A stretch of 53,195 nucleotides of DNA from Acidobacteriota bacterium. Lineage in GTDB: Bacteria > Acidobacteriota > Blastocatellia > RBC074. Where the stretch lies: positions 1 to 53,195 of the forward strand of contig JAYSVR010000216.1 of NCBI GenBank assembly GCA_043718445.1, read 5' to 3'. Position numbers and translations under genes: made by a program. Below are positions 12,545 to 53,195 of this stretch, piece after piece (position 1 is the first letter of the stretch; the number at the start of each line of letters is the position of its first letter). The notes below the pieces were generated by a model that did not search any database, had not been told where the DNA came from, and was given only the letters and a program-made list of their open reading frames with translations.

Positions 12545-12554
12545 TTTGATTTTC

Positions 12555-12581: not shown

Positions 12582-12589
12582 CATACAGT

Positions 12590-14212
12590 TCAATGCTCTA
12601 TCGAATGACCAAACGCATAAATCGTCCCGTCATACGTCGTCAGATAAAGTTGCCCCGCGCCACCCGACAACGCATTACCGCGCGCGAACGAAGTGATTGT
12701 CGTACCGCTTGACCAAACCTCTTTGCCCGTCGCGCCATCAAGCGCATACAACACCGCGCGACCTGAACGTGCTGCTGTGACCTTGCTGTCCTGGGTTTTG
12801 AATTCGCCGCTTGAAGTGGCAAAGACGACGCCATTGATCACCGTCGGCGTAAGCGGCGCGACCAGATTGCGCGAAGCCCAACCGGCGATGAGCTTGCCGT
12901 CTTCGCCAATTTTATAAGCGAGAATTGCGCCTTGCGTGGCCGCGCCGCTAAAGCCTGCTGGCAACGCACCCGTATGCGCCACGAGAATCCAGCGCGTGCC
13001 ACCGGCATCCACATAAGAAGCCAATGAACCCGGCGCAGCGCCTTTCACCGTCGCGGGCGAGACGCTCAACGCCGTCGTCAGATTCGCCGCGTCTAACAGA
13101 TGAATCGCGCCATCAATCGCGGCAGCGGCAATCAACGTTTTGCCCTGGTGATGAAACACAACCGGCGTAGAAGCAAAAATGCGGCTGGCCTGATAAACGC
13201 TTTTGGTCTGCAAAGTCTTCGCATCAATCGCAACGATAGACATCGCCCGAGACATCACCCCCGCTTCATTGGTGGCGACATAAATCGTACCGTCAGGGCC
13301 GAAAGCCGCCCCGGCTGAACCAGCCACATTGCCCTGCCACGTCGAAACTATTTGCGTATTGAAATCTAGCGACCACACGCCGTTCGGCACTGCGCCGCAA
13401 CCATTCGTCGTCACGGCATAAGCCATGCCGTCAACGATAATCAGCCCGTGGGCATTGGCTCCTGCCGGCAGAAAGCGAACGGGTGGATGAAAGTCAGCGC
13501 CATTTGATAAATGCATCGCGTGCATCAGGCCGTCGCTCGCCAGCGCATAAATCACATTCGCGCCACCGCCGAAAACCCCGCCCATCGGTGGCGTCTTCGG
13601 CCCTGGCTTCTCACTCGCCGGTGCGCTGGGCGGCGGAGAAAACCCCGGCCCGCGCACTTCGCTCAACGTCGTCGCGCCCGCACCCGGTTCACCGACCGTA
13701 CTCACGGCGGGCGTGCTGCGACCGCCGCCGAATCCGCCGCCGCGCGGAGCAGAAATCGCAGACACAGTGGGACGCACGACGCTCGTCGTCATGCCGCCCG
13801 GACAAGCCAACGTCGCAGGCGCAACCGCAGGCCCAGTAGGCGCACCAGCCTTTAATTTCCTTTCCCACTCCATCCGTCCCAAGTCAGTGTCAATCGTGAA
13901 AAGGTTGTCGCCGCTGCCCGCCACAAAGCCGAGCATGCGAAAGCCGCGATAACCAATCAGCAATTCCAGCGTCGCGGGCGAACTCAGATTGTTCAGTTGG
14001 TTGGGTTGGTTTTTGAGTTTCAGCTTCCACAAAAATTTGAGGTTGCCGGGTTGTGCGACGAAATCTTTATTGATGACCGGGTCAGTCCTGACCGTTGCCG
14101 TACGCTGTGCGTCGGCGTTCTCGGTCATCCAGTCATTGGTGCTGCGAAATTGCGCTGAAGCCGACATCACGCATACGCCACAACAAAGTATTGCCGCCAA
14201 TATGGTTTTCAT
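12590..14212 (-). CDS. PQQ-binding-like beta-propeller protein (paralog 2)
   Basis: True start MKTILAA at 14212 (TAATG overlap, GGAGG RBS); signal peptide; LYALDGATGKEVWSSG propeller motif. Confidence 0.8.
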   Translation of the reverse strand: MKTILAAILCCGVCVMSASAQFRSTNDWMTENADAQRTATVRTDPVINKDFVAQPGNLKFLWKLKLKNQPNQLNNLSSPATLELLIGYRGFRMLGFVAGSGDNLFTIDTDLGRMEWERKLKAGAPTGPAVAPATLACPGGMTTSVVRPTVSAISAPRGGGFGGGRSTPAVSTVGEPGAGATTLSEVRGPGFSPPPSAPASEKPGPKTPPMGGVFGGGANVIYALASDGLMHAMHLSNGADFHPPVRFLPAGANAHGLIIVDGMAYAVTTNGCGAVPNGVWSLDFNTQIVSTWQGNVAGSAGAAFGPDGTIYVATNEAGVMSRAMSIVAIDAKTLQTKSVYQASRIFASTPVVFHHQGKTLIAAAAIDGAIHLLDAANLTTALSVSPATVKGAAPGSLASYVDAGGTRWILVAHTGALPAGFSGAATQGAILAYKIGEDGKLIAGWASRNLVAPLTPTVINGVVFATSSGEFKTQDSKVTAARSGRAVLYALDGATGKEVWSSGTTITSFARGNALSGGAGQLYLTTYDGTIYAFGHSIEH

Positions 14213-28980: not shown

Positions 28981-29211
28981 ATGTTGGAAACCATCACTTT
29001 AGAAGAAGCGCAAATCAGCTTGCCTGCATTGATCGAGCGTTTGCTGCCTGGCGCTGAAATTATCATTACGCAAAATCAGCAGCCCGTTGCCCGCTTGAAC
29101 GCAGCCAACACCGCATTGCCAACGCCGCAATTCGGAAGCTGCCGTGGCGCATTGACCGTCATCAGCGAAGACGACGAACACTTAACCGACTTTCAGGAAT
29201 ATCTGACGTGA
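28981..29211 (+). CDS. Type II antitoxin (Phd/YefM-like with DUF2281-like tail)
   Basis: TITLEEAQ..L..LI...G.EIIIT....PVARL, then FGS.RG...DF.EY; stop overlaps the PIN toxin start. Confidence 0.8.
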   Translation: MLETITLEEAQISLPALIERLLPGAEIIITQNQQPVARLNAANTALPTPQFGSCRGALTVISEDDEHLTDFQEYLT

Positions 29212-29594
29212 ATTTGTTGTTAGACACCCACGCGCTGCTTTGGTTCGTGTTAGGCGATAAACAGTTGAGTCTCGCAGCACGACAACTTATCGAAAATTCA
29301 GCCAGCTTCAAATTCGTCAGCCCGACGAGTTACTGGGAAATTGCCATCAAGATCAGCATTGGCAAGTACGCCTTAAACGAACCTTACGAAACCTTTTTCG
29401 ACCGGGCCATCCGCCAAAACGGCTTTCAGATTTTGCCCATCGAACCGCGCCACACCGTCGCGCTCACCACCTTGCCATACCATCACCGTGACCCGTTTGA
29501 CCGCCTGATGATTGCTCAAGCAATGATCGAACGCCTGACGATAGTGAGCGCCGATACCGCCCTGAATGCCTATCCAATCCAAAGGCTTTGGTAA
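29208..29594 (+). CDS. vapC: VapC-family PIN-domain toxin
   Basis: LLLDTHALLW, S.WEIAIK.S.GK, HHRDPFDR.MIAQA and VSAD motifs. Confidence 0.92.
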   Translation: MNLLLDTHALLWFVLGDKQLSLAARQLIENSASFKFVSPTSYWEIAIKISIGKYALNEPYETFFDRAIRQNGFQILPIEPRHTVALTTLPYHHRDPFDRLMIAQAMIERLTIVSADTALNAYPIQRLW

Positions 29595-39700: not shown

Positions 39701-40144
39701 CGGCAATTCGAGGATGCGTTTGTTGTCTACGACCTTGCCCAGCGCCGAAGTCGTAGTTTCGAGCAAAGGTTGTTGCGAATTGATTTCGACGGTTTCGCTG
39801 ACCGCGCCGACTTCGAGTGCGAAATCCGCAGTCAGGGTTTGTTGCACCTGCAACGTGATGTCGTTGCGGACGGCGCGACGAAAGCCGGTGGCTTTGGCTT
39901 CGAGGCGATAAAGCCCGACAGTCAAAGGCGGCGACGTGTAATAGCCGCTGCCATTCGTCGTCACCGTGAAACTCTGATTGGTTTGCACTTGCGTGATGAT
40001 GATTTCGGCGTTGGCGATAACTTCGCCATTGGCGTTTTTGACGGTGCCGACAAAGGCTCCGGTGAACGATTGCGCTAAGGCGACGTAGCTCATAAAAGCC
40101 AACGCGGCGCAAAGCGATAAAACGAAATGGTGGCGGTGCTTCAT
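36734..40144 (-). CDS. TonB-dependent receptor 3 (Oar-like)
   Basis: Start MKHRHHF at 40144 with GGAGG RBS; LELPLNSRN and DAIQEFKV...PAEFGRS plug motifs; C-terminal [12 protein letters not shown]. Confidence 0.92.
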
Positions 40145-40266
40145 CGAAAACCTCCGGTGATGGTTCCTTGGGAGAACGAATTGTTGTTGTGTCGTAAAGG
40201 TAGTTGTAACGCTGGAAAAATTGCAGCCGAAGTATGCGCCACTCAACTGCGATTCGTCCATACCGC

Positions 40267-40458
40267 CACTTAAGTGAAGCCTGTGCAAATGAAACAATAA
40301 CTTGGGTCGGCGCAGCTTGTGGAGTGCGGCGGCTTTGACGCCGCTTTCCCAAGTCTCCGCGTTGGGCGCGCTCAGGACGGTGTGTGAAAGCGGCGTCAAA
40401 GCCGCGGCGCTTCACAGGCTTCGCCTTTCTCGAATTACGCACAGGCTTCAATTAAGTG
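40267..40458. mobile_element. MITE-like element with 20-bp terminal inverted repeats enclosing a REP-like pair
   Basis: TIRs cacttaagtgaagcctgtgc / gcacaggcttcaattaagtg (19 of 20 match). Internal gcggctttgacgccgcttt / aaagcggcgtcaaagccgc pair. No transposase in the window. Confidence 0.6.
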
Positions 40459-40538
40459 ATTTGATTGCCTGATTTGAGGCATCTGGCTTATTGTGTGCCG
40501 CCTTCAAAAAACGCATTACCATTTCAAAGGAGACCTCG

Positions 40539-41711
40539 ATGAAACATTGCACAATGAGACATTGGCTTTACGCCGTGTTGAGCGGGCTGTTGCTGACCCT
40601 CAACATCCAAGCAACCGAGACCAGCAAAGCCGTCGTCATTTATGACGACAAGGCAACTGACGTGAGCGCAGCCAAGCTGCCCACCGCCAAGCCGAATGAT
40701 TTATGGATCACGTTGGCGGATCTGAAAGCGGCGACCGGATTCGTCAACAAGCCGCAAGGCGTTTGCCGCGAAGAGCTTTGCTTCCCGCTGCCGAAAAAAC
40801 AGCGCGCCGCGTTTTTGCAAACCCAGAGCAAAACGACGTGGTTCAATTTGACGGAGTTCGCGCGCTTGCTCAAACAGCCCGTAGCGCACGACGACGCACT
40901 CGCTACCTGGTATTTCGGACAACGCTCAGAAGTGCAAAACAGCTTCACGCAAAATTTCAAAGCGCCGAATTTCACCTTGCCTGATAAGAACGGCAAGCTG
41001 CATTCGCTGTCAGATTTTCGCGGCAAGAAAGTGCTGATCGTGACGTGGGCTTCGTGGTGAGGTTGCCGTGCTGACCTGCCAGGCTGGCAGACCATTTATA
41101 GCGAACTCAAAAATCAAAACTTCGAAATCATCTCGGTCGCCGAAGACACCGGCGGACTCAAAGCCGCACTGCCGTGGATCGAAGCGGGCAAGGCTGATTA
41201 CACGGTGCTGGTTGACAAGCAACATGTGGTGACGCGCCTTTACGACATGCTTAACGTCCCGACCGCCGTTTGGATCAATGAACAAGGCCGCATCGTGCGT
41301 CCCAACGAAGTCGCTTATTCCAACAACAAAGGGATAGGCATCACCAAAGTTGACACCGAACCGTGGATCAACGGCTTGCGCGATTGGGTCAAGCTCGGCG
41401 ACAAAAGTGCGTTTGCGATGAGCGAAGCCGAGTTGCGAGAACGCTTGAAACCGCAAAATCCTGATTGGGCATTGGCTTCGGCTGAATTCGGTTTGGCCGA
41501 ATATCTTTATCAAACTGATAAAGGCGAAGCTGCGATTCCGCATTACAAAGAAGCGCAACGTCTGAACCCCGAAAGCTGGAATTTCAAGCGGCAGGCGTGG
41601 GCCTTGTCGAGCGCCAAAGACAAATACGGCACATCGTTTAACGACGAAGTGAAGAAGCTGAACGGCAAGCCTTATTACGAACCGCATCGGTTGCCGCCGG
41701 TCAAAAAATAA
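40539..41711 (+). CDS. Selenocysteine-containing thioredoxin-fold (ResA/TlpA-like WAxxUGC) protein with signal peptide, 390 aa
   Basis: ORFs 40491-41060 and 41205-41711 share a frame. Reading through TGA 41058-41060 gives TWASW-U-GCRADLPGWQTIYSELKNQNFEIISVAED with no further stop. AAGGAG RBS before ATG 40539. Confidence 0.9.
41061..41093 (+). promoter_or_regulatory. Bacterial SECIS-like hairpin
   Basis: Stem ctgcca (41076-81) / tggcag (41085-90) with a G-containing loop GGC starting 21 nt after the UGA; lower pairing ggt/acc is possible. Confidence 0.7.
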
Positions 41712-41734
41712 CCAGTAGCAAAACACTCAACGCC

Positions 41735-41776
41735 AAGGGGCAAAGCATCAACGAGTGCTTTGTCCCTTTCGTTTTT
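41735..41776 (+). terminator. Intrinsic terminator after the selenoprotein gene
   Basis: aaggggcaaagca / tgctttgtccctt stem followed by tcgttttt. Confidence 0.65.
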
Positions 41777-41881
41777 ATTCCCACGCTTTGGTTGAGAATC
41801 GCTTGCACGGTTCGCGCACCGGTCGCTTAAAATGCCTGCGCCTTCGGTGAATGAATTTTTCTTTTTGCGGATAACCAAATC

Positions 41882-44563
41882 ATGACAACTCGATTCAAAC
41901 TAATAGCTGTGTTGACGGCTGCCTTGAGCGGCTGGTGGGCGTTGCATCCGCACACCCCAAACGCGAGCAGTGCGATGGTTCCGCGCGCTTTTCTCGAAGC
42001 CAATTGCTTCGCCTGTCACAACAGCACCAACAAAAAAGCCGGGATCGATCTGACCGCGCTCAAAGACGATTACGCCGACGCGGCGACCTTCGCCACGTGG
42101 GTGAAAGTACATGACCGCGTGTATGAAAACGAAATGCCGCCCAAGCAAGCTCCGCAACCCGACCAGTCAGAACGCGCAGCCTTTCTCAAACAACTCGCGC
42201 AACCAATGATCGCCGCTGACGCCGCGCGCATCCGTCGCGAAGGCCGCGCAGTGTGGCGACGCATGAATCGCTATGAATATGAAAACACCTTGCGCGATTT
42301 GCTCGACGCGCCGTGGTTGCAAGTCAAAGAGATGTTGCCCGAAGACGGTGAAGCCAATCGTTTCAACAAGTCCGGCACGGCGCTCGGCGTCTCGCACGTA
42401 CAAATCAGTCGCTATCTGACGGCGGCGGAATACGCTTTGCGCGAAGTCATCGTGCGTTCAGAAAAACAGCCTGAAGCAATCACCAAACGTTATTACGCCC
42501 GCGAACAGCGCGCTTTCACCGGCCACGTAGAGTTTTCGCAATTCAACACCGCGTCTGAACGCGCTACGTTCCCGCTGCTTGGCAATTCCGCCGATGTCGC
42601 CGTGCTGAAAAAAGAATCACCGATGACCGTCGGCGATAAAGACCCCGCCAAACGCGAACTCGAAAGCATGGGCGTCGTAGCCAGTTCTTATGAACCGCTC
42701 GAAATTCGTTTCAATCAATTCAAAGCCAAAGTGCCAGGCCGTTACAAGCTGCGTTTGAGCGCGCATTCGTTCTGGGCGGGGCCGCAAGCAGGCGAGAAAT
42801 GGTGGCATCCCAGCCGCGATGTCGCTTCAGCCGGTCGCACCCGCGAACCGATTACGCTGTATGCTGAAATCCCGCCGCGCCAGATGCGCTATCTCACCAA
42901 CGTAGACGTGTCGCCCGAACCTTCGGTGCAGGAAGTCGAAGTCTGGTTGCTGAAAGACGAAACGATTCGGCCTGACGCCGTGCGGCTGTTTCGCTCGCGC
43001 CCGCCCAACTGGCGCAATCCGCTGGCCGAGAAAGATGGTCAGCCCGGCGTAGCCTTTCGCTGGCTCGAAGTCGTCGGGCCGATTCACGATCAATGGCCTG
43101 CTAAAGGCCATCGTTTGCTGTTTGGCGAGTTGCCGATTCATTGCAAAGACGCGCTGGCGGGACAGACGTTGCTCGACATCGAAGACGAAGAAACCGCCGT
43201 TGAGCAAGCCGCCCAACGCGCGAAAAATCCCAATCAAAAGCTGACGAAAATTTGTGGCGTGAAATCAAACAACCCACACGCCGATGCTGAAAAGCTATTG
43301 CGCAATTTTTTGCAACGCGCTTATCGCAACCCGCTCGCGCCCGTCATCGAAGAAGACACGCAACGCTTTCTGAAAATTTTTGACGCCGCGCACAAAACCA
43401 GCGGCAGCTTTTCTGAAGCAATGATTACGGCCTATTCCGCCGTGCTGTGTTCGCCCGCGTTCACGACGCTCGAAGAAAAACCCGGACGACTGGACGATCA
43501 CGCGCTGGCTGCGCGCTTGACCTATTTCCTCTGGAATTCAGCACCTGATGCAACCTTGCGCGAACTCGCGCAGCAAGGCGCATTGCGCAAGCCTGTCGTG
43601 TTGCGCACGCAAGTTGATCGCATGCTCAACGATGCCAAGTCGCAACGCTTTGTGAACGCGTTTCTGGATTATTGGCTTGATCTGCGCAAGGTGAATATCA
43701 CTTCGCCGGATGAGTTGCTTTACGCTGATTATTATCTTGATGACCATCTGGTCGAATCTGCCACGCTTGAGACGCGCCAGTTTTTTGCCGAACTCGTGCG
43801 CGGCGATTTGCCTGCGCGCAACGTGATCGCTTCTGATTTTGTCACGATTAACGAAAGGCTCGCGGCGCATTACGGCTTGCCGAATGTGCAAGGCTCACAG
43901 ATTCGCCGCGTTGCGTTGCCGCCCGATTCCATACGCGGCGGATTGCTCACGCAAGCCAGCGTACTCAAAGTCACCGCGAACGGCACGACCACTTCGCCCG
44001 TCGTGCGCGGCGCATGGATGATGGAACGCATCCTCGGCAAACCCGTACCGCCGCCGCCCGCTGGAGTAGCCGCTGTCGAACCGGATGTGCGCGGCGCTAC
44101 GACGATGCGACAGCAACTCGACCAACATCGTAATAACCCAAGCTGCAATGTCTGCCACGCGAAAATTGATCCGGCGGGTTTTGCGCTCGAAAACTTCGAC
44201 GTCTTCGGCGGCTGGCGCGACAAATACCGCGCATTGGCCGAAGGCGAAAAAGCCCAAGGCGTTGGCAAGAACGGACAAAAATTTGCCTTTCGTTATATTC
44301 AACCCGTAGACGCTTCAGGCTCGCTGCCTGATGGTCAGAAGTTTCAAGACGTGCGTGAGTTGAAACGCCTATTGCTCAAAGACGAACGGCAGATTGCGCG
44401 CAACCTGACCACGCAACTCATCGTCTTTGCGACCGGCGCGAGCGTGCAATTCAGCGACCGTCCGAAAGTCGAAGCTCTGCTTGATCGCGCTGCGAGCAAA
44501 GGCTATGGCGTGAAATCACTGATTCAGCTTATTATCGAAAGCGAGTTGTTTCGGAATAAGTAA
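41882..44563 (+). CDS. DUF1592/DUF1588/DUF1587/DUF1585/DUF1595 planctomycete-type cytochrome protein
   Basis: N-terminal CFACH; [16 protein letters not shown]; [14 protein letters not shown]; [25 protein letters not shown]; [17 protein letters not shown]. Confidence 0.92.
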
Positions 44564-44579
44564 CCGGCAGGAAAAGTTT

Positions 44580-45179
44580 ATGAGTTACAGCGAATTCACG
44601 ATGGATGACCTGAAGACGAAATTTCATTTGAATTTCGTCCAGGATGAAGCCCTTTTTCCGGTTGTGCCTGAATATCCAATTTCTGCCGAACTGAGAAAGT
44701 ACCTCGTCACTTACGTTCCGTTGGCACTGGCGATAGACACCGAAAAAGCTCGGTCGGAATATATCGTGGCTCAGATTTTGGGTGAGTTAAAGATGAGCCA
44801 TCACGACGACATCAGCCTCTTTTCCGGTATTGAGTTCAATGTGGATAAGGAGCTAGGTTTGGTGGGAAGGTGCGACTACATCATTTCAAGGTCTGGCGAT
44901 CAATATTCGCTCTCAGCACCCATTGTCGTGATGGTAGAAGCCAAGAACGACAATATAAAAAGCGGCATCGCTCAATGCGGTGCGGAAATGCTGGCAGCAC
45001 AGAAATTCAATCAGCAAAAAAAGAATGAAGTGAGTTCTGTGTACGGTTGTGTCTCAACGGGAACCAACTGGAAGTTTCTGAAACTCAACGGAACCGATCT
45101 TTATATTGATGTCGTCGAGTATTACATTGATGCGCCGGAAAAAATCATGGGCATCCTTGCCAGTGTGATGGCGAGTTGA
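44580..45179 (+). CDS. PD-(D/E)XK restriction-endonuclease-like hypothetical protein
   Basis: TEKARSE, G.CDY, VEAK, QC.AEM.AA and YG.V.TG..W.FL pattern (HsdR-N-like fold by motif resemblance). Confidence 0.65.
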   Translation: MSYSEFTMDDLKTKFHLNFVQDEALFPVVPEYPISAELRKYLVTYVPLALAIDTEKARSEYIVAQILGELKMSHHDDISLFSGIEFNVDKELGLVGRCDYIISRSGDQYSLSAPIVVMVEAKNDNIKSGIAQCGAEMLAAQKFNQQKKNEVSSVYGCVSTGTNWKFLKLNGTDLYIDVVEYYIDAPEKIMGILASVMAS

Positions 45180-45204
45180 GACGGCTGCTCATTAACTCAA
45201 TCCG

Positions 45205-46254
45205 ATGAAATTCACCATCGCAAAATTTGTAGTAAGCGCATTGCTCATCACGGCTTGTTTGCTCAGCGTCGTGCCAGCACAGCAAACTGCCACGCAAAAA
45301 TATCTGATTTCAGTCGAGCGCATTTGGGAGCGCGCCCAGCACAATGCGTTCACTGATTTGGTCGAATTCAACGGCAAGCTCTATTGCACCTTTCGCGAAG
45401 GCTCGGCGCATGTGCCCGGCAAAGAAGGCGTGAATGGCACGATTCGTGTGATCGTTTCGGACGATGGGCAAAACTGGCGTTCGGTCGCGTTGCTGGCCGA
45501 AGCGACCTACGATTTGCGCGATCCGAAATTGTCGGTTACGCCCGATGGCCGCTTGATGGTGGTGGCGGGCGGGTCGTATTACGAAGGCGAATCGCGGCTG
45601 CATACCAAGATGTGGGTGACCTTTTCTGACAAGCTCGGCAAATCGTTTGGGCGTGTGCAACCGATGATCTTTGACGAAAAGGCGGCAGCAGTAGCGGGCT
45701 GGCTCTGGCGCGTGACGTGGCATCGCGGCATTGGTTACGGCGTAATGTATAACAGCGCGCCAGACCGCAACGACGCGCTGCTTTTGTCTACGCGGGATGG
45801 CGTGCATTTCCAAACGGTCACGCGGTTTGATTTGCAAGGAGCGCCCAACGAAACCGTGCTGCGCTTTTTGCCAAATGGCAATATGGTCGCGTGGGTGCGA
45901 CGCGACCGCGAATCGCAAAACGGCTTCATCGGCGTCAGCCGCGCGCCTTACACAGAATGGCAATGGAAAGAGCAACCCCGACGCGTCGGCGGGCCAGAAT
46001 TCATCGTCATGCCCAACGGCCAATTGATCGGCGCGGCGCGTTTATATTTGCCCGAAGGGAAAACGCGCACCGCTGTTGTCTCGCTCACGACCGATGGCAA
46101 GCTCGAACCGCTGTTGATGCTGCCCAGCGCCGGAGACAGCAGCTACGCGGGCATGGTCTTGCGCGGCGACAAATTGCTGTTGTCGTATTACGCGAGCCAC
46201 GAAGGCAAGACTTCGATTTATCTGGCTACGCTGAACGCCAAGGCGTTGCAATAG
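45205..46254 (+). CDS. Secreted sialidase/BNR (Asp-box) beta-propeller protein
   Basis: Signal peptide; HNAFTDL, FREG..H, Asp-box SDDGQNW, DLRDPKL, and GDSSY.G. Confidence 0.8.
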   Translation: MKFTIAKFVVSALLITACLLSVVPAQQTATQKYLISVERIWERAQHNAFTDLVEFNGKLYCTFREGSAHVPGKEGVNGTIRVIVSDDGQNWRSVALLAEATYDLRDPKLSVTPDGRLMVVAGGSYYEGESRLHTKMWVTFSDKLGKSFGRVQPMIFDEKAAAVAGWLWRVTWHRGIGYGVMYNSAPDRNDALLLSTRDGVHFQTVTRFDLQGAPNETVLRFLPNGNMVAWVRRDRESQNGFIGVSRAPYTEWQWKEQPRRVGGPEFIVMPNGQLIGAARLYLPEGKTRTAVVSLTTDGKLEPLLMLPSAGDSSYAGMVLRGDKLLLSYYASHEGKTSIYLATLNAKALQ

Positions 46255-46333
46255 TGAGTTATAGGTAAAGAACAAATCTAAGGTATAACGAATAAGTTGA
46301 TAAGTAGTTAAAAATTTCATCGCAGAGGGGAAA

Positions 46334-48130
46334 ATGACTGATATTTGTAAATTTACATCCGTTACATTTCGAAATTATAAAGCACTCAAGCAATACTCTG
46401 TTTCGCTTGACGCCTTTAATGTACTTGTTGGCCCAAACAATTCAGGGAAGTCAACAATCATTAGCGCATTTCGCATTCTTGCAGAAGGTATTAAAAAAGC
46501 AAAATCAAAAAAACCTGAATTCGTAAACCTGATCACTGAAGAATCTTGGGGCTATCGATTATCGCTAGCAGAGTTGCCAATTGCTACAGAAAATATATTT
46601 ACGAATTACGATGACTCCCAACAAGCACTAATAGAGTTTCGACTATCTAATGGCAATAAACTCAGCTTAGTGTTCCCTGAGCAAAATGTTTGTTACTTAA
46701 TATGTAGATCAAATGGTCGAACTGTGAAGTCACCGTCTGACTTTGAACGAGACTATAATGTTAGCGTCGGGTTTGTTCCAGTTTTGGGGCCTGTTGAGCA
46801 TAACGAGCCATTGTACCAAAAAGAAGCTGCAAGATTGGCTTTATTGACACACAGAGCATCAAGGAATTTTAGAAACATTTGGTACCACTATCCTGAGGGA
46901 TTTAATGAGTTTCGTGATTTAATCTCTTCGACTTGGCCCGGGATGGATATTGAACCGCCCACTATTGATCAAACTTCTGATAAGCCTATTCTGCATATGT
47001 TCTGCCCTGAGGAACGATTTCCAAGAGAGATATACTGGGGAGGATTTGGATTTCAAGTCTGGTGTCAGATGCTAACCTATATTGTTAGAGCCAAAAATGA
47101 CTCTATTCTTATCATTGATGAACCAGACATTTACCTACACTCTGATATTCAGAGGCAGCTTGTTAGCATATTAAAGTCTCTCGGCCCCGACATTGTTATT
47201 GCAACTCATTCAACTGAAATTATTTCTGAAGCTGACCCTGGAGATTTACTAATAATAAATAAAAAATCAAGATCTGCAAAAAGGATAAGCGACCTGAGTC
47301 AGCTACAGGCAGTTTTTGGCTTACTTGGGTCAAATCTAAATCCAATTTTGACGCAACTAGCAAAGTCAAAACGTGCAATTTTTGTTGAAGGGAAGGACTT
47401 TCAAATTCTATCTACTTTTGCGCGTATTATGGGGAAGCAATTTGTTGCGAACCGCTCTGATTTTGCGGTAATTCCCACTGACGGATTTAATCCACAAAAA
47501 ATCATTGATTTTTCAAACGGAATGGAGTTGACGCTTGGTGTGCCAATTATGAAGGGCGTAATTCTTGACAGAGACTATAGATCAAATGATGAAATTAAAG
47601 AAATTCATAAAAAACTAAAACAGACCGCTACATTTTCCCATATACACACTAGAAAAGAGCTTGAAAATTATTTATCAGTTCCAAGCACTTTGGACCGCGC
47701 CATAAATAAAAAAATTCTTGAATACAATAAAAGAAATGGGACGCAAATAAAGTTCAGTGAGACGTCAGAACTCATACTTACTTCATTAACTACTCCGCTT
47801 AAAAGCAAAATCAGCGGTCAGTATCTTTCGAAAGGTGCAATCTATGAAAAGCAGAAGGAGCCTGGCCTGGATCAGGCAACCATTACACAAATACTGCTTG
47901 ATAGATTTGAGGAGGCTTGGAGTGATATTGAAAGACGGCTTGAAATAATTCCAGGTAAAGATGTGTTATCCGCACTAAATACATATATTCAGGGACATTA
48001 TAAAGTTACACTCTCGCCAACATTTATAATTAAAGAAATGAGATATACAGAGATCCCGAATGAAATGATTGAGTTAATAGAGAAAATAGAAGCGTTTCGC
48101 CTACAATCGGCTACAAACAGCGATGAATGA
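46334..48130 (+). CDS. OLD-like ATP-dependent nuclease (ABC-type ATPase + TOPRIM), low GC
   Basis: Walker A GPNNSGKS, Walker B LIIDEPD, H-loop IATHS, TOPRIM FVEGKD and LDRD, and ELENY. One 60-nt spot count gave about 28% GC. Confidence 0.8.
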   Translation: MTDICKFTSVTFRNYKALKQYSVSLDAFNVLVGPNNSGKSTIISAFRILAEGIKKAKSKKPEFVNLITEESWGYRLSLAELPIATENIFTNYDDSQQALIEFRLSNGNKLSLVFPEQNVCYLICRSNGRTVKSPSDFERDYNVSVGFVPVLGPVEHNEPLYQKEAARLALLTHRASRNFRNIWYHYPEGFNEFRDLISSTWPGMDIEPPTIDQTSDKPILHMFCPEERFPREIYWGGFGFQVWCQMLTYIVRAKNDSILIIDEPDIYLHSDIQRQLVSILKSLGPDIVIATHSTEIISEADPGDLLIINKKSRSAKRISDLSQLQAVFGLLGSNLNPILTQLAKSKRAIFVEGKDFQILSTFARIMGKQFVANRSDFAVIPTDGFNPQKIIDFSNGMELTLGVPIMKGVILDRDYRSNDEIKEIHKKLKQTATFSHIHTRKELENYLSVPSTLDRAINKKILEYNKRNGTQIKFSETSELILTSLTTPLKSKISGQYLSKGAIYEKQKEPGLDQATITQILLDRFEEAWSDIERRLEIIPGKDVLSALNTYIQGHYKVTLSPTFIIKEMRYTEIPNEMIELIEKIEAFRLQSATNSDE

Positions 48131-48213
48131 CTTAAATATTTAAGTAGCTCGTATTATGTACACTTCTGAGCTTCAACCAAATTTACTCCGGTAAACATCA
48201 GGAAATTTAATTT

Positions 48214-48301
48214 ATGAAAGCACTCAACATTTCAACCCAAACTGAGCTTTCTCGCCGCAGCTTTTTTGCGCAAAGCCGGTGTCGCGTTCAGCTTGCCGTT
48301 G
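48214..48301 (+). pseudogene. Frameshifted, diverged copy of the first 29 codons of the DUF1552 gene
   Basis: Aligns to 49885-49971 with 69 of 87 identities (manual count) plus one extra T. Reads [29 protein letters not shown] versus [29 protein letters not shown]. Confidence 0.85.
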
Positions 48302-48342
48302 AGCAAGGTTAATCCGGTAAATTAAATATAAGGGAGATTCCC

Positions 48343-49362
48343 ATGCTGCCCCATCTCATCAACTACAGTCCAATTCGCACCCTCATACTTTTGGCCCTCG
48401 TCTGCGGCATGATTGCTATAGGCGTCGTCCAAGCTCAGAAAGCAAAAGGCAGCCGCACTGTCTATCTGCTTACCCGCGACGGCAAGGTGTTGGTGGGTAG
48501 ACTTTCCACAGGCGGCTTCACGGTGAACGAAAGCCCCTCCCGCTCCGTGGGGGTTGAGACAGTGCTTTCGATCAATCTTGGGCAAGAGGCAAGCCCGTAT
48601 GAAGCAGCGCGCATCACCGCCGATCTGGCCGCCGTTCAGGGCACCGACCGGCAGGCGCGTGACGCAGCGGTGGCGGAGTTGACCGACATCGGGCTGCCAG
48701 CATTCACGCCTGTACTCAACGCCTACAAAGATCGTGACCTGCGCGAGCCGGACGCGCTCTATCGCCTCTTCGCTCGCTTGATGCCCGGCTATGCTGACGC
48801 GTCAGATCGCTCGCTTGATCTGATTCGGCTGAAAAATGGCGACGCCTTGCGCGGTAGGCTGGGAATATCATCGCTCACGATTCAGCCGACGGGCGGGGCG
48901 GCGATGAAGGTTTCGCTCGCTGAGCTTCGTTCGCTGGCGATACGGCAGAACGTGATCGAGAAAACTTTTGACGTGCATGCGCTCAGGCACTGCACCCAGA
49001 TCGAATTCCTCGACACCGGCGTCATCATTGGCCCCAACTCGCGCGTCGAAGCGACCGCCGCCGGATATGTGCGCCTCTCCTTCGCCATTGATGGCTGGGC
49101 CGCTGATCCCGATGGAATCAAAGTACCGGGGCCGAATTACAAGACGAATCTGGTGGATGGCTTTCCCTTTGGCGCACTGGTCGGCAAGGTCGGCGTCGCC
49201 GCGCCGCGCTTCATCGTAGGGCGTCGGCTGGACAAAACCGGTTTGGGTGAAGGCCGCCTTTATCTCGCCGTCAACGACAACGGACATTGGCAAAACAACA
49301 TCGGCAGCTTTCGCGTGAAGCTGCGCGTGAGAGATGCTTATGACGTGGGCGATCCGCAGTAG
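48343..49362 (+). CDS. Exported hypothetical protein with C-terminal LecA/PA-IL-like beta-sandwich
   Basis: GGGAG RBS; signal peptide; DTGV......V...A.G, GALVGKVG....F.VG and GRLYLAVND.....N.GSFRV pattern. Confidence 0.6.
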   Translation: MLPHLINYSPIRTLILLALVCGMIAIGVVQAQKAKGSRTVYLLTRDGKVLVGRLSTGGFTVNESPSRSVGVETVLSINLGQEASPYEAARITADLAAVQGTDRQARDAAVAELTDIGLPAFTPVLNAYKDRDLREPDALYRLFARLMPGYADASDRSLDLIRLKNGDALRGRLGISSLTIQPTGGAAMKVSLAELRSLAIRQNVIEKTFDVHALRHCTQIEFLDTGVIIGPNSRVEATAAGYVRLSFAIDGWAADPDGIKVPGPNYKTNLVDGFPFGALVGKVGVAAPRFIVGRRLDKTGLGEGRLYLAVNDNGHWQNNIGSFRVKLRVRDAYDVGDPQ

Positions 49363-49388
49363 GTCAAAGAGCTTCTTGACTAACGCTT

Positions 49389-49613
49389 ATGAGTACGAAA
49401 CAGCAATTTGTCATTTGCATTAAAAACGAAGACTATCCAGCTTCGTTACAGTTATGGAAAGTTTATCGCGTGTTACCTGACGAAAAGGGCGCACGACATA
49501 ACGTGATTCGCGTCGTTGATGAATCGGGCGGAGATTATCTTTTTTCGGCGAGTTACTTCGTTCCGGTGAGGTTACCGTTGGCAGTGAAATCAGCGATTCT
49601 TGCAACGGCGTAG
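49389..49613 (+). CDS. Small conserved hypothetical protein (SH3-like, antitoxin-like)
   Basis: FVICIKN..YPASL...KVY.VL.D......IRVVDESG.DYLF...YF; 74 aa. Confidence 0.7.
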   Translation: MSTKQQFVICIKNEDYPASLQLWKVYRVLPDEKGARHNVIRVVDESGGDYLFSASYFVPVRLPLAVKSAILATA

Positions 49614-49621
49614 AGGTAAAG

Positions 49622-49861
49622 ATGAACAAGATCAAGTTATTTGATGTCGTCGCTTTGACGGAAGACCTGCCGAAATACAAGTTGCGGCGTGGCGAAATCG
49701 GCGCGGTCGTCGAAGTTCATCCAACCGGCAGCTATGAAGTCGAGTTTGTTTCACAAGATGGACACACTTACGCTTTGATCGCAGCCAAGAAAGAGCAACT
49801 CATCGCGCTAAGACAGAAACCACTGCATACGACCCGCAAATTAGTTCCTGCGGCATTGTGA
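49622..49861 (+). CDS. DUF4926 domain protein
   Basis: [14 protein letters not shown]...L.RGEIG.VVEV.....YEVEF....G.TYA; GAGG RBS. Confidence 0.85.
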
Positions 49862-49884
49862 TTAACAGAAAGAGGATTCACCAC

Positions 49885-51201
49885 ATGAAGACCATTCACA
49901 TCTCAACTCAAACCGCCCTCTCTCGCCGCAGCTTCTTGCGCGGAACCGGTGTCGCGCTCGGCTTGCCGTTGCTCGACGCGATGCTGCCTGCGTTTGCGCG
50001 CGCCGACAGCAAAGCCCAAGTGCCGCGCCGCTTCCTGGCGATTTGCAACAACCTCGGCGTGCTGCCGTCGAAGTTTTTTCCGGCGGCGGATTCCAAAGGC
50101 TTCGGCTATCAACTTTCGCCTTACCTCGAAGAATTGCGCGCGCATCGCAATGAATTCACGGTCTTCAGCGGCGTTTGGCATCCTGACGTAGACGCGGGGC
50201 ATCCGGCAGACAATTGCTTTTTGACTGCCGCGCCGCACCCCAGCAGCGGAGGCTTTCGCAATACGATCTCACTCGATCAATTCGCGGCGGAACACATCGG
50301 CAATCAAACGCGCTTTCCTTCGCTCACGCTCGGCGTCAATATTCAGCAAGGTCAGCACAGCCTTTCGTGGACGAGCGGCGGCGTGTTGATTCCGTCAGAA
50401 GAAAAACCTTCCGAAATTTTCAAACGCATGTTCGTCACCGGCACGCCCGCTGAAGTCGAGGCGCAAATGCGCCGTCTGGCGTTGGGGCAAAGCGTGATGG
50501 ATTCGGTCGCCCAACAAACAACTCGGCTGCAAAAAAATATCGGCCCACGCGACCGCGAACGGTTGGATCAATACATGACTGGTGTGCGCGATCTTGAAAA
50601 ACGTTTGGGGCAAGCCGCCGAATGGGAGCAGAAACCCAAACCCGTCGTCAGCGCGCAATGTCCGACAGACACCGCTGCGCCGCGTGATTATTTTGAAAAG
50701 GTGAGATTGATGTATGACCTTGCCGCGCTGGCGTTTGAAACCGACTCGACACGGATCGTCGCGTTGATGCTCGACAGCGTGAATTCGCCCGCGATTACGA
50801 TTGGCGACGAGACAATGGCGGATAGTTATCACGCGATTTCGCATCACGGCAGGAAGCCTGAAAAATTGCGGCAGCACGAAATCGCCGACCGCATGCAAAT
50901 GAAGGCGCTCGATAAACTGTTCACCGATTTGAAAGCGCGCAAAGAAGGCAATGACACGCTGATGGATCGCACGATGGTGTTATACGGCACGAACATGGGT
51001 GACGCGAATACGCATGTGACGACGAACCTGCCGACGTTGTTTGCGGGCGGCGGATTCAAGCACGGACAGCATCTGGGCTTTGACCGCGAACGCAATTACC
51101 CACTGCCGAATCTGTTTGTGAATGTATTGCAACGGTTGGGCATCGAAGCTGATAAGTTTGCGACCAGCACCGGTACGATGCGCGGGCTTGAGGTGGCGTA
51201 A
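49885..51201 (+). CDS. DUF1552 (HXXSHH) domain Tat-exported protein
   Basis: [19 protein letters not shown]; ISLDQ.AA; LAF.TD.TR; YHAISHH; H...NLP...AGG. ATG 49885 with GAGGA RBS. Confidence 0.92.
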
Positions 51202-51207
51202 AGCCTC

Positions 51208-51341
51208 AGAAAAATCAAAAGGTAAAAGGCAAAAGGCGAAAGGCAAAAATTCATTCGGAAGGCTGTGGCGCTTTATGAATAGAAAAAGATAAAGCGCCGA
51301 ACTTTTGATTTTTGCCTTTTGCCTTTTGCCTTTTGATTTCT
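51208..51341. repeat. Inverted heptamer arrays (caaaagg)n / (ccttttg)n with an inner hairpin
   Basis: aatcaaaaggtaaaaggcaaaaggcgaaaggcaaaaat ... atttttgccttttgccttttgccttttgattt; inner ggcgctttat / ataaagcgcc. Confidence 0.88.
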
Positions 51342-51347
51342 TAAACC

Positions 51348-52592
51348 ATGAATAAACCTACTTCCACTTCTTACGCGCGCACCGCGTGGCTCGTTGTAAT
51401 CCTGCTCATTCCGGTCGCGCTGTTGAATTATCTCGACCGGCAAATGATGGCGGCGATGAAGTCCTCGATGATGGGCGACATTCCTGACATCAGCACCAAA
51501 GCAAATTGGGGCTTTGTGCTCGGTTCGTTCAAATGGGTCTATGCGATTTTGAGCCCGGTAGGCGGTTATATGGCTGATCGCTTGAGCCGTCGCCATGTGA
51601 TTTGTTTGAGCTTGTTTGTCTGGTCGGCGGTTACGTGGGCGACGGGGCACGTCGGCAGCTATAACGAACTCGTAGCCGCGCGCGCGCTGATGGGCGTGAG
51701 CGAAGCCTTTTATATTCCGGCAGCTTTGGCGTTGATTACCGATTATCACCTGGGAGCTACGCGGTCGCGCGCAGTGGGCTTTCATCAGATGGGTATTTAT
51801 ATCGGTACGATTCTCGGCGGCTTTTCGGGCTACGTCGCTGACAGTCCGGCGTATGGCTGGCGCTGGATGTTTTCGTTGTGCGGCATCGTGGGAATTGTTT
51901 ACGCGCTTCCGTTGTTTGCGTTCTTGCGCAATGCGCCGCGTAGCGCCGATGCGCAGCCACAACCTTCGCCGATAAAAGCCGGGCGCGAGTTATTCACCAA
52001 CATCGGCTTCATCTTGCTCGTGTTGTATTTCACGCTGCCTGCGTTGGCGGGTTGGGTCGTGCGCGATTGGATGCCCGACATTTTGAAAGAGCAATTCGGA
52101 CTCGGACAGGGCAAGGCGGGCGTGTCGGCGGTGCTGTTTGTTCAAATCGCTTCGTTGGTTGGCGTACTCATCGGCGGCTGGCTGGCAGATCGTTGGATGC
52201 AGCGCAACATTCGCGGACGCATCTGGGTCAGCGCGCTCGGCATGACGTTTTTTCTGCCCGCGCTGTTTGGCGTGGGCAATGCCTCGACGTTGTTGATGGC
52301 CGTGTGTTTTTTGATGTTGTTCGGTTTGGGCTGGGGCTTTTTCGATTGCAACAACATGCCAATCCTTTGTCAACTTGTGCGGCCTGAGTTGCGGGCGACG
52401 GGTTACGGCCTGATGAATCTGGTGAGCATCAGTTGCGGTGGATTGGCTGATTGGGGTTTTGGCGCGTTGCGCGACCGACACGTTCCGCTGAATGTGATCT
52501 TCGGCGTATTCGCAGGCGTGGCGTTGCTGTCAGTATTCATCGTGTTACTGATCAAGCCGCGCAAAGAGTTGATGACGGTTGCGCCGTCTTAG
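51348..52592 (+). CDS. MFS transporter (anion:cation symporter / hexuronate-like)
   Basis: LNYLDRQ, G.MADR.SRR and R.LMG.SEA...PA motifs; about 12 hydrophobic segments. Confidence 0.9.
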
Positions 52593-53195
52593 CGACTCAC
52601 TAACCGATAGCTCACAAACGCCAACTGCTTGCTGTCGGGCGACCACGAAGGCACGTTCATAGTTCCTTGCCCGCCGAACAATTTCGCCAGCACTTGAATC
52701 TCTCCACCACCAACAGGCATCAGCCTGAGCATTACGTCTTTATTGGCCGGATGTCCGGTCACGTCTTTTTCATACGAGATGAACACCAGCCACTTGCCGT
52801 CGGGCGAAGGATGCGCAAACCAGTTGTTGTAATCGTCTTTGGTGATTTGCGTCTGCTCGCTGCCGTCGGGTTTCATCCGCCAGATTTGCATTAGCCCGGT
52901 ACGCACTGAGTTGAAATAGATGTACTGCCCGTCGTGCGAATACTCCGGCCCATCGTCCAAACCATCCGCCGTAGTCAATCGCCTCTCTTCACCGCCTTCG
53001 ACGGGAATCGCATATACGTCGTAATTGCCATTGCGGTCGGCGCAATAAACCAGCGTTTTGCCGTCAGGCGACCAGCCGTGCCAGTAAGACGGCGCAAGCT
53101 GCGTGATGCGTTTGGGCGTACCGCCGGTAATCGGCAGCGTATAAATTAACGATTGCCGCCGCTCCTGTGATTGATCGCTGATGACGAGTTGCGTG
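52589..53195 (-). CDS. TolB-like PD40/WD40 beta-propeller protein (5' partial)
   Basis: Frame is open to the window end; repeats [24 protein letters not shown] and PSWSPDSK. Confidence 0.88.

Follow-up and report, generated by a model that had tools for sequence, protein, structure and literature searches.

How does a gene pair that is usually adjacent come to be split by six unrelated genes? In the window, by which we mean the whole 53,195-nt stretch of Acidobacteriota DNA analysed here, six ORFs in one orientation occupy 44580-49861 between a DUF1592-type gene and a DUF1552 gene (Table 1). The initial annotation read this 5.3 kb as an integrase-free variable array, whose genes accumulate inside a conserved operon, use its promoter and are exchanged by recombination anchored on the flanking core genes. 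ORF calling and family scans bear out the six co-oriented genes, and the other parts of that reading are taken up below.

The split pair and its insert

Table 1 Features of the DUF1592-DUF1552 locus in the window.
Feature	Position	Strand	Length	GC	Evidence
Left core gene, DUF1592-type planctomycete-cytochrome-domain protein	41882..44563	+	893 aa		Pfam
c1, PD-(D/E)xK nuclease-like protein	44580..45179	+	199 aa	0.457	PADLOC PD_DExK 3.8e-49
c2, sialidase-family-like protein	45205..46254	+	349 aa	0.570	NCBI homolog names
c3, stand-alone OLD/GajA-like ABC-ATPase protein	46334..48130	+	598 aa	0.377	Pfam, PADLOC, PDB
S' remnant (DUF1552 5'-end copy)	48196..48301	+			blastn, nhmmer, direct repeats
c4, membrane-anchored or secreted, weakly PA-IL-lectin-like C-terminus	48343..49362	+	339 aa	0.599	
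c5, 74-aa protein	49389..49613	+	74 aa	0.45	No family matched
c6, DUF4926 protein	49622..49861	+	79 aa	0.492	Pfam 2.9e-23
Right core gene, DUF1552 (HXXSHH), twin-arginine-type N-terminus	49885..51201	+			Pfam HXXSHH 1.2e-81

The left core gene carries the Pfam domains PSCyt1, PSD3, PSD5, PSD4 (4.7e-38), PSCyt3 and PSD2, and its orthologs share 68-87% amino acid identity; those of DUF1552 share 77-93%. The longest DUF1552 ORF begins at GTG 49858; alignment with orthologs and the internal remnant described below place the start at ATG 49885, in agreement with the insert end of 49884 given previously. The last ~270 nt of DUF1592 and the first ~140 nt of DUF1552 are the segments found duplicated as remnants, termed E' (in other genomes) and S', respectively.

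Spacers measure, from left to right, 16, 25, 79, 212, 26, 8 and 23 nt, and five of the seven are short, as had been noted. The reported sharp differences in composition between neighbouring genes also hold: GC ranges from 0.38 to 0.60 in a genome of 0.553, none of 3954 genome-wide 1800-nt windows has a GC as low as c3, and just 1.9% of the genome's 600-nt windows have one as low as c1. Scanning of 42 window ORFs returned no match to integrase or transposase families, so the insert lacks them, as first described.

Orthologous loci and their cassettes

We compared 46 orthologous loci from the same family, the window included. In 11 loci, which represent six genera, the core genes lie directly side by side; in 21 they are separated, and contig ends cut the remaining 14. 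Inserts in the occupied loci span 968-7650 nt and differ in content in all 21; the window's six-gene set occurs in none of the other 45 loci. The absence of this gene set from those 45 loci and the adjacency of 11 orthologous pairs support the proposal of a variable array. The premise that the two genes are usually adjacent is confirmed by paralogs as well: Among the 97 paralogous PSD4/DUF1552 pairs of 61 related genomes (two pairs coming from G008, an unpublished genome), 84 have 590-827 nt between domain and gene, and three of the four other pairs in the window's own genome overlap or lie 28 nt apart. Arrays of this type occur in several genera of a single family, which probably belongs to Blastocatellia.

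The arrays appear integrase-free beyond the window, as none of 142 array ORFs from other genomes matched an integrase or transposase family. In bounded arrays, 94 of 106 ORFs are co-oriented with the core genes, and terminator-like sites show no excess in arrays. Given their tight packing and co-orientation, the cassettes are probably read from the operon promoter. That genes accumulate inside this operon is supported by the variable occupancy, although c2 and c4 recur together and the six window genes are thus not all independent arrivals.

Two of the cassettes resemble nucleases or defence proteins. The product of c1 has no Pfam match, and a 91% identical copy lies in genome G098 (locus L067), there followed by an E' remnant. 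The N-terminal ABC-type ATPase domain of c3 matches AAA_21 (2.8e-21) and AAA_15 (8.4e-21) in Pfam, and the PADLOC models Old (4.3e-22), GajA and AriA also match the protein; GajA models align to residues 255-480 and a PDB GajA match (8.6e-9) to residues 248-359. Residues 300-598 give no Pfam Toprim match at any E up to 1, and no GajB helicase gene, as in Gabija, adjoins c3, whose neighbours are c2 and c4. The 80 c3 relatives kept come from many phyla, with 46-70% identity over the best segment, and no neighbouring gene is conserved among them (largest neighbour cluster 2 of 139).

Both c2 and c4 are lineage-native genes with host-like GC, and they occur together in seven loci, the window included. 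The only Pfam match of c2 is a weak one to DUF5122 (E 0.004). Of its 4632 homologs, those with 59-66% identity are from Blastocatellia and bear the NCBI names exo-alpha-sialidase or sialidase family protein; its signal-like N-terminus predicts that the product is secreted. It is also present in L031, L036, L046, L058 and L061. Domain search assigns no family to c4, whose PA-IL lectin match is weak (E 0.055, residues 224-334). It has 416 homologs, and among the best 120 (68-100% identical) all those named are from Blastocatellia or Acidobacteria; it is found in eight other loci. Between c2 and c4 lies an inner slot that is occupied, from genome to genome, by different nuclease-type genes of low GC; here the occupant is c3.

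Copies of c5 with 84-89% identity lie in L060, L062 and L068, in all three ahead of an E' remnant; in L050 an 85% identical copy adjoins a CopG antitoxin gene. A DUF6883-DUF4926 pair is found in L046, L054, L067 and L071; in the window the DUF6883 partner of c6 is missing and its upstream gene is c5. Contigs from another sample (run X3) show different arrangements of the same genes: one has c1, then 23 nt, then an E' remnant consisting of the DUF1592 3' end from 44342, and another joins c2 to c4 (46251 to 48352) without c3.

Remnants of core-gene ends and a proposed mechanism

Searches with nhmmer profiles of the DUF1592 3' end (E) and the DUF1552 5' end (S) returned 18 non-core E' copies in 14 loci and seven S' copies in six loci. 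All 25 remnants are on the core-gene strand, inside arrays and between cassettes. None was found in ~185 kb of DNA flanking the same loci, nor elsewhere in the 7.7-Mb genome besides the paralogous genes and one weak S-like match on contig C625. Such truncated copies of core-gene ends between cassettes are a new observation.

The E' remnants encode the conserved PSD2 (DUF1585) end of DUF1592. On the 3' side, 14 of 18 end no more than 4 nt from the stop codon; the 5' breakpoints of the remnants are scattered from -43 to -271 nt, the longest remnant being at most 272 nt. Five of the 18 breakpoints cluster at -201 to -222, which we attribute to the start of the conserved PSD2 domain limiting detection by alignment; there may be a preferred breakpoint site there. 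The S' remnants begin within about 27 nt of the ATG in six of seven cases and end at profile positions 83-139. No junction motif common to the arrays was found, and no microhomology was identified at the joins. The most E' remnants in one array is three (L067). The window array has no E' remnant and a single scar, S': a frameshifted, truncated copy of DUF1552 that begins at the ATG (48214) and covers the first ~90-100 nt, detected by nhmmer (5.9e-16 and 8.6e-15), by blastn matches to ortholog starts and as direct repeats D1 and D5 (75% and 85% to 49885-49971). The junctions c1/c2, c4/c5 and c5/c6 carry no scar.

Remnants are 71-97% identical to core ends. Several appear to be of foreign origin, being closer to another genome's core end: the S' of L054 is 73.6% identical to its own core end vs 91.2% to another genome's, and the E' of L065 75% vs 84.5%. 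A signature of displacement is seen at the PEMT gene, which begins 1 nt after the DUF1592 stop in L049; in L064 and L068 the same junction sits behind an E', with a new cassette and an intact DUF1592 end upstream. The DUF1552 tree conflicts with genus labels (g1 needs 4 changes for 4 rows, and the starred branches require no fewer than 6 for g15), although these labels are those of metagenome bins and mis-binned contigs could inflate apparent inter-genus transfer. Neither core gene shows a gradient of synonymous identity towards the array, so exchanges are not recent or are too infrequent to homogenise the gene ends.

Because truncated DUF1592 3' ends and DUF1552 5' ends lie between cassettes, recombination anchored on the flanking core genes, as the initial annotation proposed, is supported by physical scars. 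From these comparisons of sequence, we think it likely that these 5.3 kb are one example of a cassette array that recombination builds, without an integrase, inside the conserved pair. DNA from relatives would recombine homologously inside one core gene, a step the scars support, while the other end of the incoming piece would join illegitimately, often in the end segment (~50-270 nt) of a core gene, whether that of the recipient or of the donor. The variable breakpoints suggest that these joins are homology-facilitated illegitimate recombination. The incoming piece would bring an intact gene end and its adjacent cassette, leaving the displaced end as a truncated pseudo-copy (E' or S'), and with repeated rounds cassettes would pile up from either flank. 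Simple double crossovers, with an exchange in each core gene, may swap whole arrays scarlessly, and remnants probably double as secondary homology patches, which would explain the inner c2-c4 slot with its different low-GC gene per genome. Two kinds of cargo would be carried: selfish or defensive modules of foreign composition, such as the PD-DExK protein, the OLD-like ATPase and toxin-antitoxin pieces, and lineage-native secreted or enzymatic accessory genes, such as c2 and c4 here and PEMT, ODP, AraC-GyrI, glyoxalase and xylose-isomerase-like TIM-barrel genes elsewhere. A mechanism of the same type has been proposed for analogous arrays (PMC5361080), and the pattern fits what has been put forward for the Rhs, T6SS and Neisseria systems discussed below.

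Alternative explanations

The recurrence of cassette-remnant units would also fit circles formed by RecA only, in which, after a first remnant has formed, homologous recombination between E0 and E' (or S' and S0) excises the enclosed cassette, which then enters any core end by a single Campbell-type crossover, illegitimate joins being rare. c5 is followed by E' in L060, L062 and L068, DUF6883-DUF4926 by E' in L054, L067 and L071, and S' by a xylose-isomerase-like TIM gene in L050, L054 and L066; every remnant is a direct repeat of a core end, and the lack of any longer than 272 nt fits fast deletion of long repeats. We nevertheless find this explanation unlikely, as the at least 12 distinct cassette-to-E' junction classes would need as many founding illegitimate events, and sequences 71-97% identical over 50-270 nt are a poor RecA substrate. 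No circular or excised form was present in the contigs matched to the window, which are weak evidence on this point. Insertion by a recombinase acting in trans (IntI/attC or Xer/IMEX-like), with E' and S' as attachment sites, is more doubtful still. In integrons each cassette is followed by an attC, an imperfect palindrome of roughly 55-140 nt bearing R''/R' boxes, and an adjacent integron integrase defines an integron, arrays lacking one being CALINs. The genome does encode an intI (contig C583:999-2006; TIGR02249, 421.6 bits vs an NCBIfam cut-off of 265), the arrays are integron-like in being co-oriented, tightly packed and rich in toxin-antitoxin, glyoxalase and Cass2-like genes, and five of the 18 E' breakpoints fall within 21 nt. 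However, the remaining breakpoints spread over 230 nt without a common motif, the five window spacers of 8-26 nt are too short for attC, and the last 270 nt of DUF1592 show no rise in third-codon-position identity. No integron integrase lies in the window, and the 1 kb upstream of the intI on C583 has no attC-like pattern. A search for R''...R' patterns found no attC-like sites attributable to the arrays: pairs occur at 0.12 per kb in arrays (67.7 kb) vs 0.16 per kb in flanks (185 kb), and the one place matched in the window (48222-48304; two matches, one per strand, with 0.9 expected) folds no better than shuffled sequence (z 0.93 and 0.58).

Ordinary operon evolution, with the insert genes as functional partners of the pair that are inherited vertically and differentially lost without any hotspot, would account for the recurrence with host-like GC of c2, c4 and the PEMT-ODP-AraC-glyoxalase and TIM-barrel modules, many of them secreted, and for the 103-107 nt glyoxalase-DUF1552 spacing in 10 of 12 copies from nine bounded loci. 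It is very improbable for the locus as a whole: nothing lies between the genes in 84 of 97 paralogous pairs and 11 orthologous loci, loss alone cannot produce gene-end remnants, a part in what the pair does is implausible for toxin-antitoxin and nuclease genes, and the GC of c3 is matched by no other 1.8-kb window of the genome, its relatives being spread over many phyla without conserved context. It is already contradicted for c1, c3, c5 and c6. The genome is a metagenome bin of 642 contigs, GC jumps sharply between neighbouring genes and contig ends interrupt 14 of the 46 loci within or beside the array, all of which might point to a chimeric contig joining different organisms. Such an artefact of assembly or binning is hardly credible, as a single Logan contig in each of two runs (both possibly the source sample) covers 44431-50065 with zero differences, and comparable arrays occur in G002, a genome in one contig, and on contigs 100-580 kb long.

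Relation to known variable loci

The arrays at this gene pair share traits with several systems. In chromosomal integrons the cassettes are tightly packed in one orientation and look promoterless, toxin-antitoxin, glyoxalase/bleomycin-type and Cass2-like genes are common among them, and new ones enter beside a fixed site. The arrays described here resemble integrons and CALINs in these respects, but have no attC sites found or adjacent intI, are entered at two ends, and have as inter-cassette repeats pieces of coding sequence with variable boundaries. pheS-pheT holds an example of a Neisseria minimal mobile element. These elements (Saunders & Snyder 2002; Snyder et al. 2007), as quoted in PMC3787668, are differing whole-gene cassettes between conserved flanking genes, without mobility genes, exchanged by homologous recombination in the flanks. 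They carry no terminal repeats and move by natural transformation. Content likewise varies here between specific conserved flanks (21 occupied loci all different, 11 empty), no transposase or integrase family matched the array ORFs, and the sole repeats found are the flanking-gene remnants. Exchange by flank recombination may operate here too, the observations that bear on it being scars and tree discordance. In contrast to minimal mobile elements, the arrays hold multiple cassettes (up to about 11 ORFs), lie inside a gene pair otherwise overlapping or about 20 nt apart, contain truncated copies of both flanking gene ends, and belong to a lineage that is not known as naturally transformable.

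C-terminal displacement arrays are described for Rhs, CDI and Vibrio cholerae T6SS effector-immunity loci in PMC5361080, which cites Jackson et al. 2009 and also draws the integron parallel: a module recombines in the conserved upstream region and joins illegitimately downstream, orphaning the old 3' end, and repetition builds strings of orphan 3' ends without an integrase. Orphan 3' fragments also lie downstream of the upstream gene here (18 E' in 14 loci, none in the window itself). Whereas those arrays displace a variable toxin domain with an immunity gene as payload, a conserved non-toxic gene end is displaced here, the payload is any unrelated gene, and the downstream gene shows the mirror image of the process at its 5' end. 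The Pseudomonas aeruginosa core defence hotspots cDHS1 and cDHS2 (PMC10250203) are hypervariable fixed loci between core genes, with GC below the genome's and content discordant with phylogeny, for which flank recombination is suggested as one route; medians are 6-26 kb, they are built largely by transposons, conjugative elements and prophages, and only 29-47% of sites are without a mobile gene. The arrays share with cDHS1 and cDHS2 the fixed position between core genes, the hypervariable content at odds with phylogeny, the GC below the genome's and flank recombination as a suggested route, and differ in their size of 1-7.7 kb, in having no mobility gene in 142 ORFs, in defence being only part of the cargo and in their flank scars. 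If this reading is true, arrays of defence, toxin-antitoxin and accessory genes would be rebuilt by recombination in the flanking genes, without an integrase.

Core genes and cassettes in the window

Nine ORFs, all in one orientation, occupy 41882-52592 of the window, with six cassette ORFs (c1-c6) lying between the DUF1592-type and the DUF1552 core gene (Table). The start of the DUF1552 gene was set to the ATG rather than to the GTG of the longest ORF because of the alignment of orthologs and an internal copy of the start of the gene.

The initial annotation had taken the two core genes to be usually adjacent, and this is borne out by the pairs of the window's own genome and by 61 related genomes. 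Three of the four other DUF1592/DUF1552 pairs in the own genome overlap by 4 nt or lie 28 nt apart. Across the 61 related genomes, the distance from PSD4 to DUF1552 is 590-827 nt in 84 of 97 paralogous pairs (two of the 97 come from the unpublished genome G008); nine of the remaining pairs fall at 900-1500 nt and four exceed 1500 nt, one of which, 21 kb apart, is probably not a true pair. The fourth other pair of the own genome is split by 1.5 kb containing three small ORFs without a Pfam or PADLOC family. Orthologs of this split paralog in other genomes have PSD4-to-DUF1552 distances of 1375-2948 nt.

Features of the window and of related contigs (window positions unless another contig or locus is named; GC of the genome is 0.553)
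Feature	Position	Strand	Description	GC
Left core gene, DUF1592-type	41882-44563	+	PSCyt1, PSD3, PSD5, PSD4, PSCyt3, PSD2 (full planctomycete-type domain set)	
c1			PD-DExK-like (PADLOC, 3.8e-49)	0.457
c2			no significant family	0.570
c3			ABC-ATPase, OLD/GajA/AriA kind	0.377
Inverted repeat around c3	46301-46323 and 48120-48142		23 nt, 74% complementary, AT-rich	
S' remnant	48196/48214-48301		75-85% identity to 49885-49971	
c4			no family; weak PA-IL lectin match, E 0.055	0.599
c5			74 aa, no family	0.45
c6			DUF4926	0.492
Right core gene, DUF1552/HXXSHH	from ATG 49885	+	family match; longest ORF from GTG 49858	
Hairpin	51212-51340		129 nt, near-perfect, AAAGGC-type repeats	
Small ORF and PIN-domain gene	28981-29594		76-aa ORF overlapping PIN-domain gene (2.9e-15)	
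Second cytochrome protein	31783-34281	-	PSCyt1, PSCyt2/DUF1549, PSD1/DUF1553	
Split paralogous pair, insert	G000:C606:17383-18834 (L077 4384-5835)		three small ORFs	
intI homolog	G000:C583:999-2006		TIGR02249, 421.6 bits	
Broken pair, L078	G004:C124:13000-30000		core genes about 11 kb apart	
DUF1592 ortholog, L054 (G083)	oriented 10925-13518		aligns as aa 1-192, 196-791, 785-893	

The gene labels given in the initial annotation hold as leads; a Toprim half, as an OLD nuclease would have, was not confirmed for c3. NCBI records from Blastocatellia give the names exo-alpha-sialidase or sialidase family protein to c2 homologs of 59-66% identity; c4 has 416 homologs, and the named ones among the matches listed are from Blastocatellia and Acidobacteria only. 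The sharp shifts in base composition from gene to gene were borne out by per-gene GC, which spans 0.377-0.599, and the AT-richness of c3 is unmatched by any 1.8-kb window of the genome. Spacers along the array measure 16, 25, 79, 212, 26, 8 and 23 nt in order. Relatives of c3, 46-70% identical over the best segment, occur in many phyla with no common neighbour; c3 behaves like a module of one gene that is widely distributed horizontally. The predicted donor form, with c3 directly 5' of DUF1552, is absent from the 80 kept loci of c3 relatives (one genome per species). The inverted repeat around c3 was judged a chance match and rejected as a meaningful element. Scans for promoters and terminators returned 9 and 20 matches versus 8.0 and 17.6 in shuffled sequence, counts uninformative on co-transcription either way.

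An Rfam scan of 40000-53195 gave sub-threshold miRNA-type matches only, on a hairpin outside the insert. The 129-nt hairpin between the DUF1552 and MFS genes has a DNA fold of -42.5 kcal/mol (z -8.85). The bin containing it (51166-51556) has a summed contig depth of 264-760 in four sediment metagenome runs, versus about 10-60 in neighbouring bins, and the contigs over it continue into many unlike flanks. The hairpin resembles a palindromic element present in a great number of copies. Elsewhere, the overlapping ORF pair at 28981-29594, amid polysaccharide-degradation genes, is likely a toxin-antitoxin pair, and the second planctomycete-type cytochrome protein belongs to the other class. The rest of the window is rich in TonB-dependent receptors, carboxylesterases and PQQ dehydrogenases, and also encodes a sulfatase and a pectate lyase.

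Occupancy and cargo of orthologous loci

Searches of 87 family genomes returned a DUF1552 match at E <= 1e-150 in 50 of them. Stretches were taken around the best DUF1552 matches (46, one without the gene start), which gave 46 scored loci with the window included. The core genes are directly adjacent in 11 loci (L034, L037, L038, L039, L041, L042, L043, L059, L074, L075 and L076; genera g4, g5, g7, g9, g13 and g16), where the computed gaps are -23 to 138 nt, to which about 27 nt should be added as gaps run to the position aligned with 49858. Another 21 loci, from genera g1, g11, g14 and g15, are occupied, with 968-7650 nt between the core genes, and the other 14 could be placed in neither class, with a contig end in or near the array or DUF1592 out of range. 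The six-gene set of the window was found at none of the other scored loci, and the adjacency of the core genes in relatives likewise agrees with the initial annotation, which had proposed insertion into a conserved pair.

As mosaics, the arrays draw on about 20 recurrent cassette families and on singletons. Their cargo comprises toxin-antitoxin modules (BrnT/BrnA, BrnT/CopG, PIN_3 with a 78-aa partner, DUF433/DUF5615, DUF6883/DUF4926 and UPF0175/PDC-S70), nuclease or defence-type genes (PD-DExK, OLD-like ATPase, GmrSD/NsnA-like, HNH and TIR) and accessory genes of host-like GC (c2, c4, PEMT-like, ODP metallo-beta-lactamase fold, AraC-GyrI/Cass2-like, glyoxalase, xylose-isomerase-like TIM barrel and MR/MLE). 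Where both core genes bound the array, 94/106 ORFs share the orientation of the pair, as do 71/80 when the count is limited to families present in at least two loci. Matches to integrase or transposase families numbered zero both among the 142 array ORFs scanned and among the 42 ORFs of the window, so the description of the array as integrase-free stands for these two sets. In G004, a genome of the same genus, the DUF1592 ortholog, a BrnA-like gene and a 272-nt copy of the DUF1592 3' end lie on one strand and DUF1552 is inverted on the same contig, which suggests an inversion with one breakpoint inside the array.

Contigs from metagenome runs give a second view of the locus. In two runs, which may represent the source sample, one contig each matches 44431-50065 without differences, and the array is thus contiguous in those runs. 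Run X3, which belongs to the same study but to a different sample, contains relatives at 90-99% likeness. In one X3 contig, c1 is followed after 23 other nt by the DUF1592 3' end from 44342, a form also present in G098; in another, which lacks c3, 46251 at the end of c2 is linked to 48352 at the start of c4, and other sequence of up to about 1.3 kb may intervene. In run X5, depth over the c3 bins is 0, a value taken from contigs and not reads; with no contig across the gap, this zero was given no weight. None of the runs listed with this DNA is an RNA run.

The DUF1552 tree (44 rows) is at odds with the genus labels of the metagenome bins: its starred branches force at least six changes for g15 and at least four for g11, and the four g1 rows amount to four changes. 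Thirty rows form a supported clade in which all decidable loci are occupied; occupied loci also appear at three other places. L063 (G084, g15) and L070 (G095, g11) carry near-identical DUF1552 genes (tree path about 0.045), reflecting either very recent transfer or mis-binning, and mis-binning of contigs could add to the discordance between tree and genus labels. G095 holds two copies of the DUF1552 ortholog.

Gene-end remnants and the joining of cassettes

A copy of the DUF1552 start, frameshifted and ~90-100 nt long from the ATG, lies in the 212-nt spacer between c3 and c4. We searched all loci, and then the G004 stretch, with two profiles, one of the final 600 nt of DUF1592 and the other of the initial 600 nt of DUF1552. 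Fourteen loci carry additional copies of the DUF1592 3' end (E'; 18 in all, leaving out two matches at contig starts that are probably the gene itself), and six loci carry additional copies of the DUF1552 5' end (S'; 7 in all). All 25 remnants lie inside arrays in core-gene orientation; profile searches found none in the flanks of the same loci, and none elsewhere in the 7.7-Mb genome except paralogous genes and one weak match.

E' and S' mirror each other in shape. The 3' ends of E' fall within 4 nt of the stop codon in 14/18 cases and the 5' ends are scattered from -43 to -271; the 5' ends of S' lie within about 27 nt of the ATG in 6/7 and the 3' ends at profile positions 83-139. Remnants show 71-97% identity to core ends, several being closer to the core end of another genome than to their own. 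L054 holds one E' and two S' remnants; its DUF1592 ortholog aligns in three pieces, which may reflect frameshifts or assembly errors.

In L049 the PEMT cassette starts 1 nt past the stop codon of DUF1592. In L064 and L068 it starts -3 to +1 nt past an E', and another cassette and the intact DUF1592 end lie upstream of that E'. An incoming "gene end plus cassette" that displaced the old gene end would leave this trace. The proposal of recombination anchored on the core genes gains from these loci, as the remnant junctions copy the intact-gene junction. Its likely form is homologous recombination in one core gene with an illegitimate join at the other end of the incoming piece.

The DUF4926-E' junction varies in position (about -219 in L054, about -146 to -169 in L067 and L071), and by our reading there are at least 12 classes of cassette-to-E' junction. 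Joining at a dedicated site is an alternative, and several results speak against it. No shared motif was found at the remnant breakpoints. Five of the 18 breakpoints do cluster between -201 and -222, where the conserved PSD2 domain begins; we take this to be a detection limit, because a diverged remnant would not align upstream of PSD2. Pattern and folding searches for attC/integron sites in the window and 67.7 kb of arrays gave no enrichment and no stable hairpin, and such sites were rejected; the sole attC-pattern match in the window coincides with the S' remnant, and shuffled sequence folds just as well. The own genome does encode an integron integrase homolog, scoring above the NCBIfam cut-off, on a contig that stops 1 kb upstream of intI. 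That 1 kb contains a large inverted repeat and no attC-like pattern, and nothing ties this intI to the array locus. A DNA-level signal of recombination in the core-gene ends was also considered and rejected: third-position identity is 0.56-0.63 in the last 270 nt of DUF1592 and 0.54-0.69 in the first 270 nt of DUF1552, in neither case above the rest of the gene.

c2 and c4 lie 55 nt apart in L061, and elsewhere the slot between them contains c3 and S' (window), a GmrSD/NsnA-like gene and S' (L031), E' and a 283-aa low-GC gene (L036), an HNH gene and a 135-aa gene (L046), or E' and a 381-aa gene with a weak DUF6602 match (L058). The variable genes of this slot each lie right of an E' or left of an S', as they would relative to intact ends, which suggests that remnants may serve as secondary homology patches.

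Relation to known systems and implications

Among the titles and abstracts listed for the two families and their domains, none deals with insertions in the DUF1592/DUF1552 pair. The array locus fits the definition of a minimal mobile element (PMC3787668). It shares the orphan-3'-end signature with Rhs/CDI/T6SS arrays (PMC5361080), but its payload is different, its scars occur at both flanks and it sits within a gene pair. Integrons are set apart by their defining attC sites, of which the pattern and folding searches gave no sign in the arrays. Core defence hotspots of Pseudomonas (PMC10250203) are far larger and mostly carry mobile-element genes, unlike the array locus. Replacement islands, minimal mobile elements and C-terminal displacement are already known, and the array locus extends the concept.

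A bolder reading, which we hold to be rather unlikely, is that the truncated gene-end copies are more than scars and are the functional parts of something like an integron that operates without a recombinase: E' and S' would be portable homology arms for the host's general recombination, capturing, excising and reshuffling neighbouring cassettes between genomes, and the pair their landing platform. If so, the widely duplicated "planctomycete-type" pair would serve as a landing platform dedicated to defence and accessory genes, in Blastocatellia and possibly also in two further groups that have many such pairs, Planctomycetota and Verrucomicrobiota.

The locus offers a clear natural case of cassette arrays built without a dedicated recombinase, from a phylum of soil and sediment that has received little study, with the insertion history kept in the flanking genes as dated scars at both ends. 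In Acidobacteriota, the intervals between DUF1592 and DUF1552 orthologs offer an easy bioinformatic bait with which to look for new single-gene modules of defence and toxin-antitoxin type. That a supposedly tightly coupled pair tolerates kilobases of foreign DNA bears on the function and expression of DUF1592 and DUF1552.
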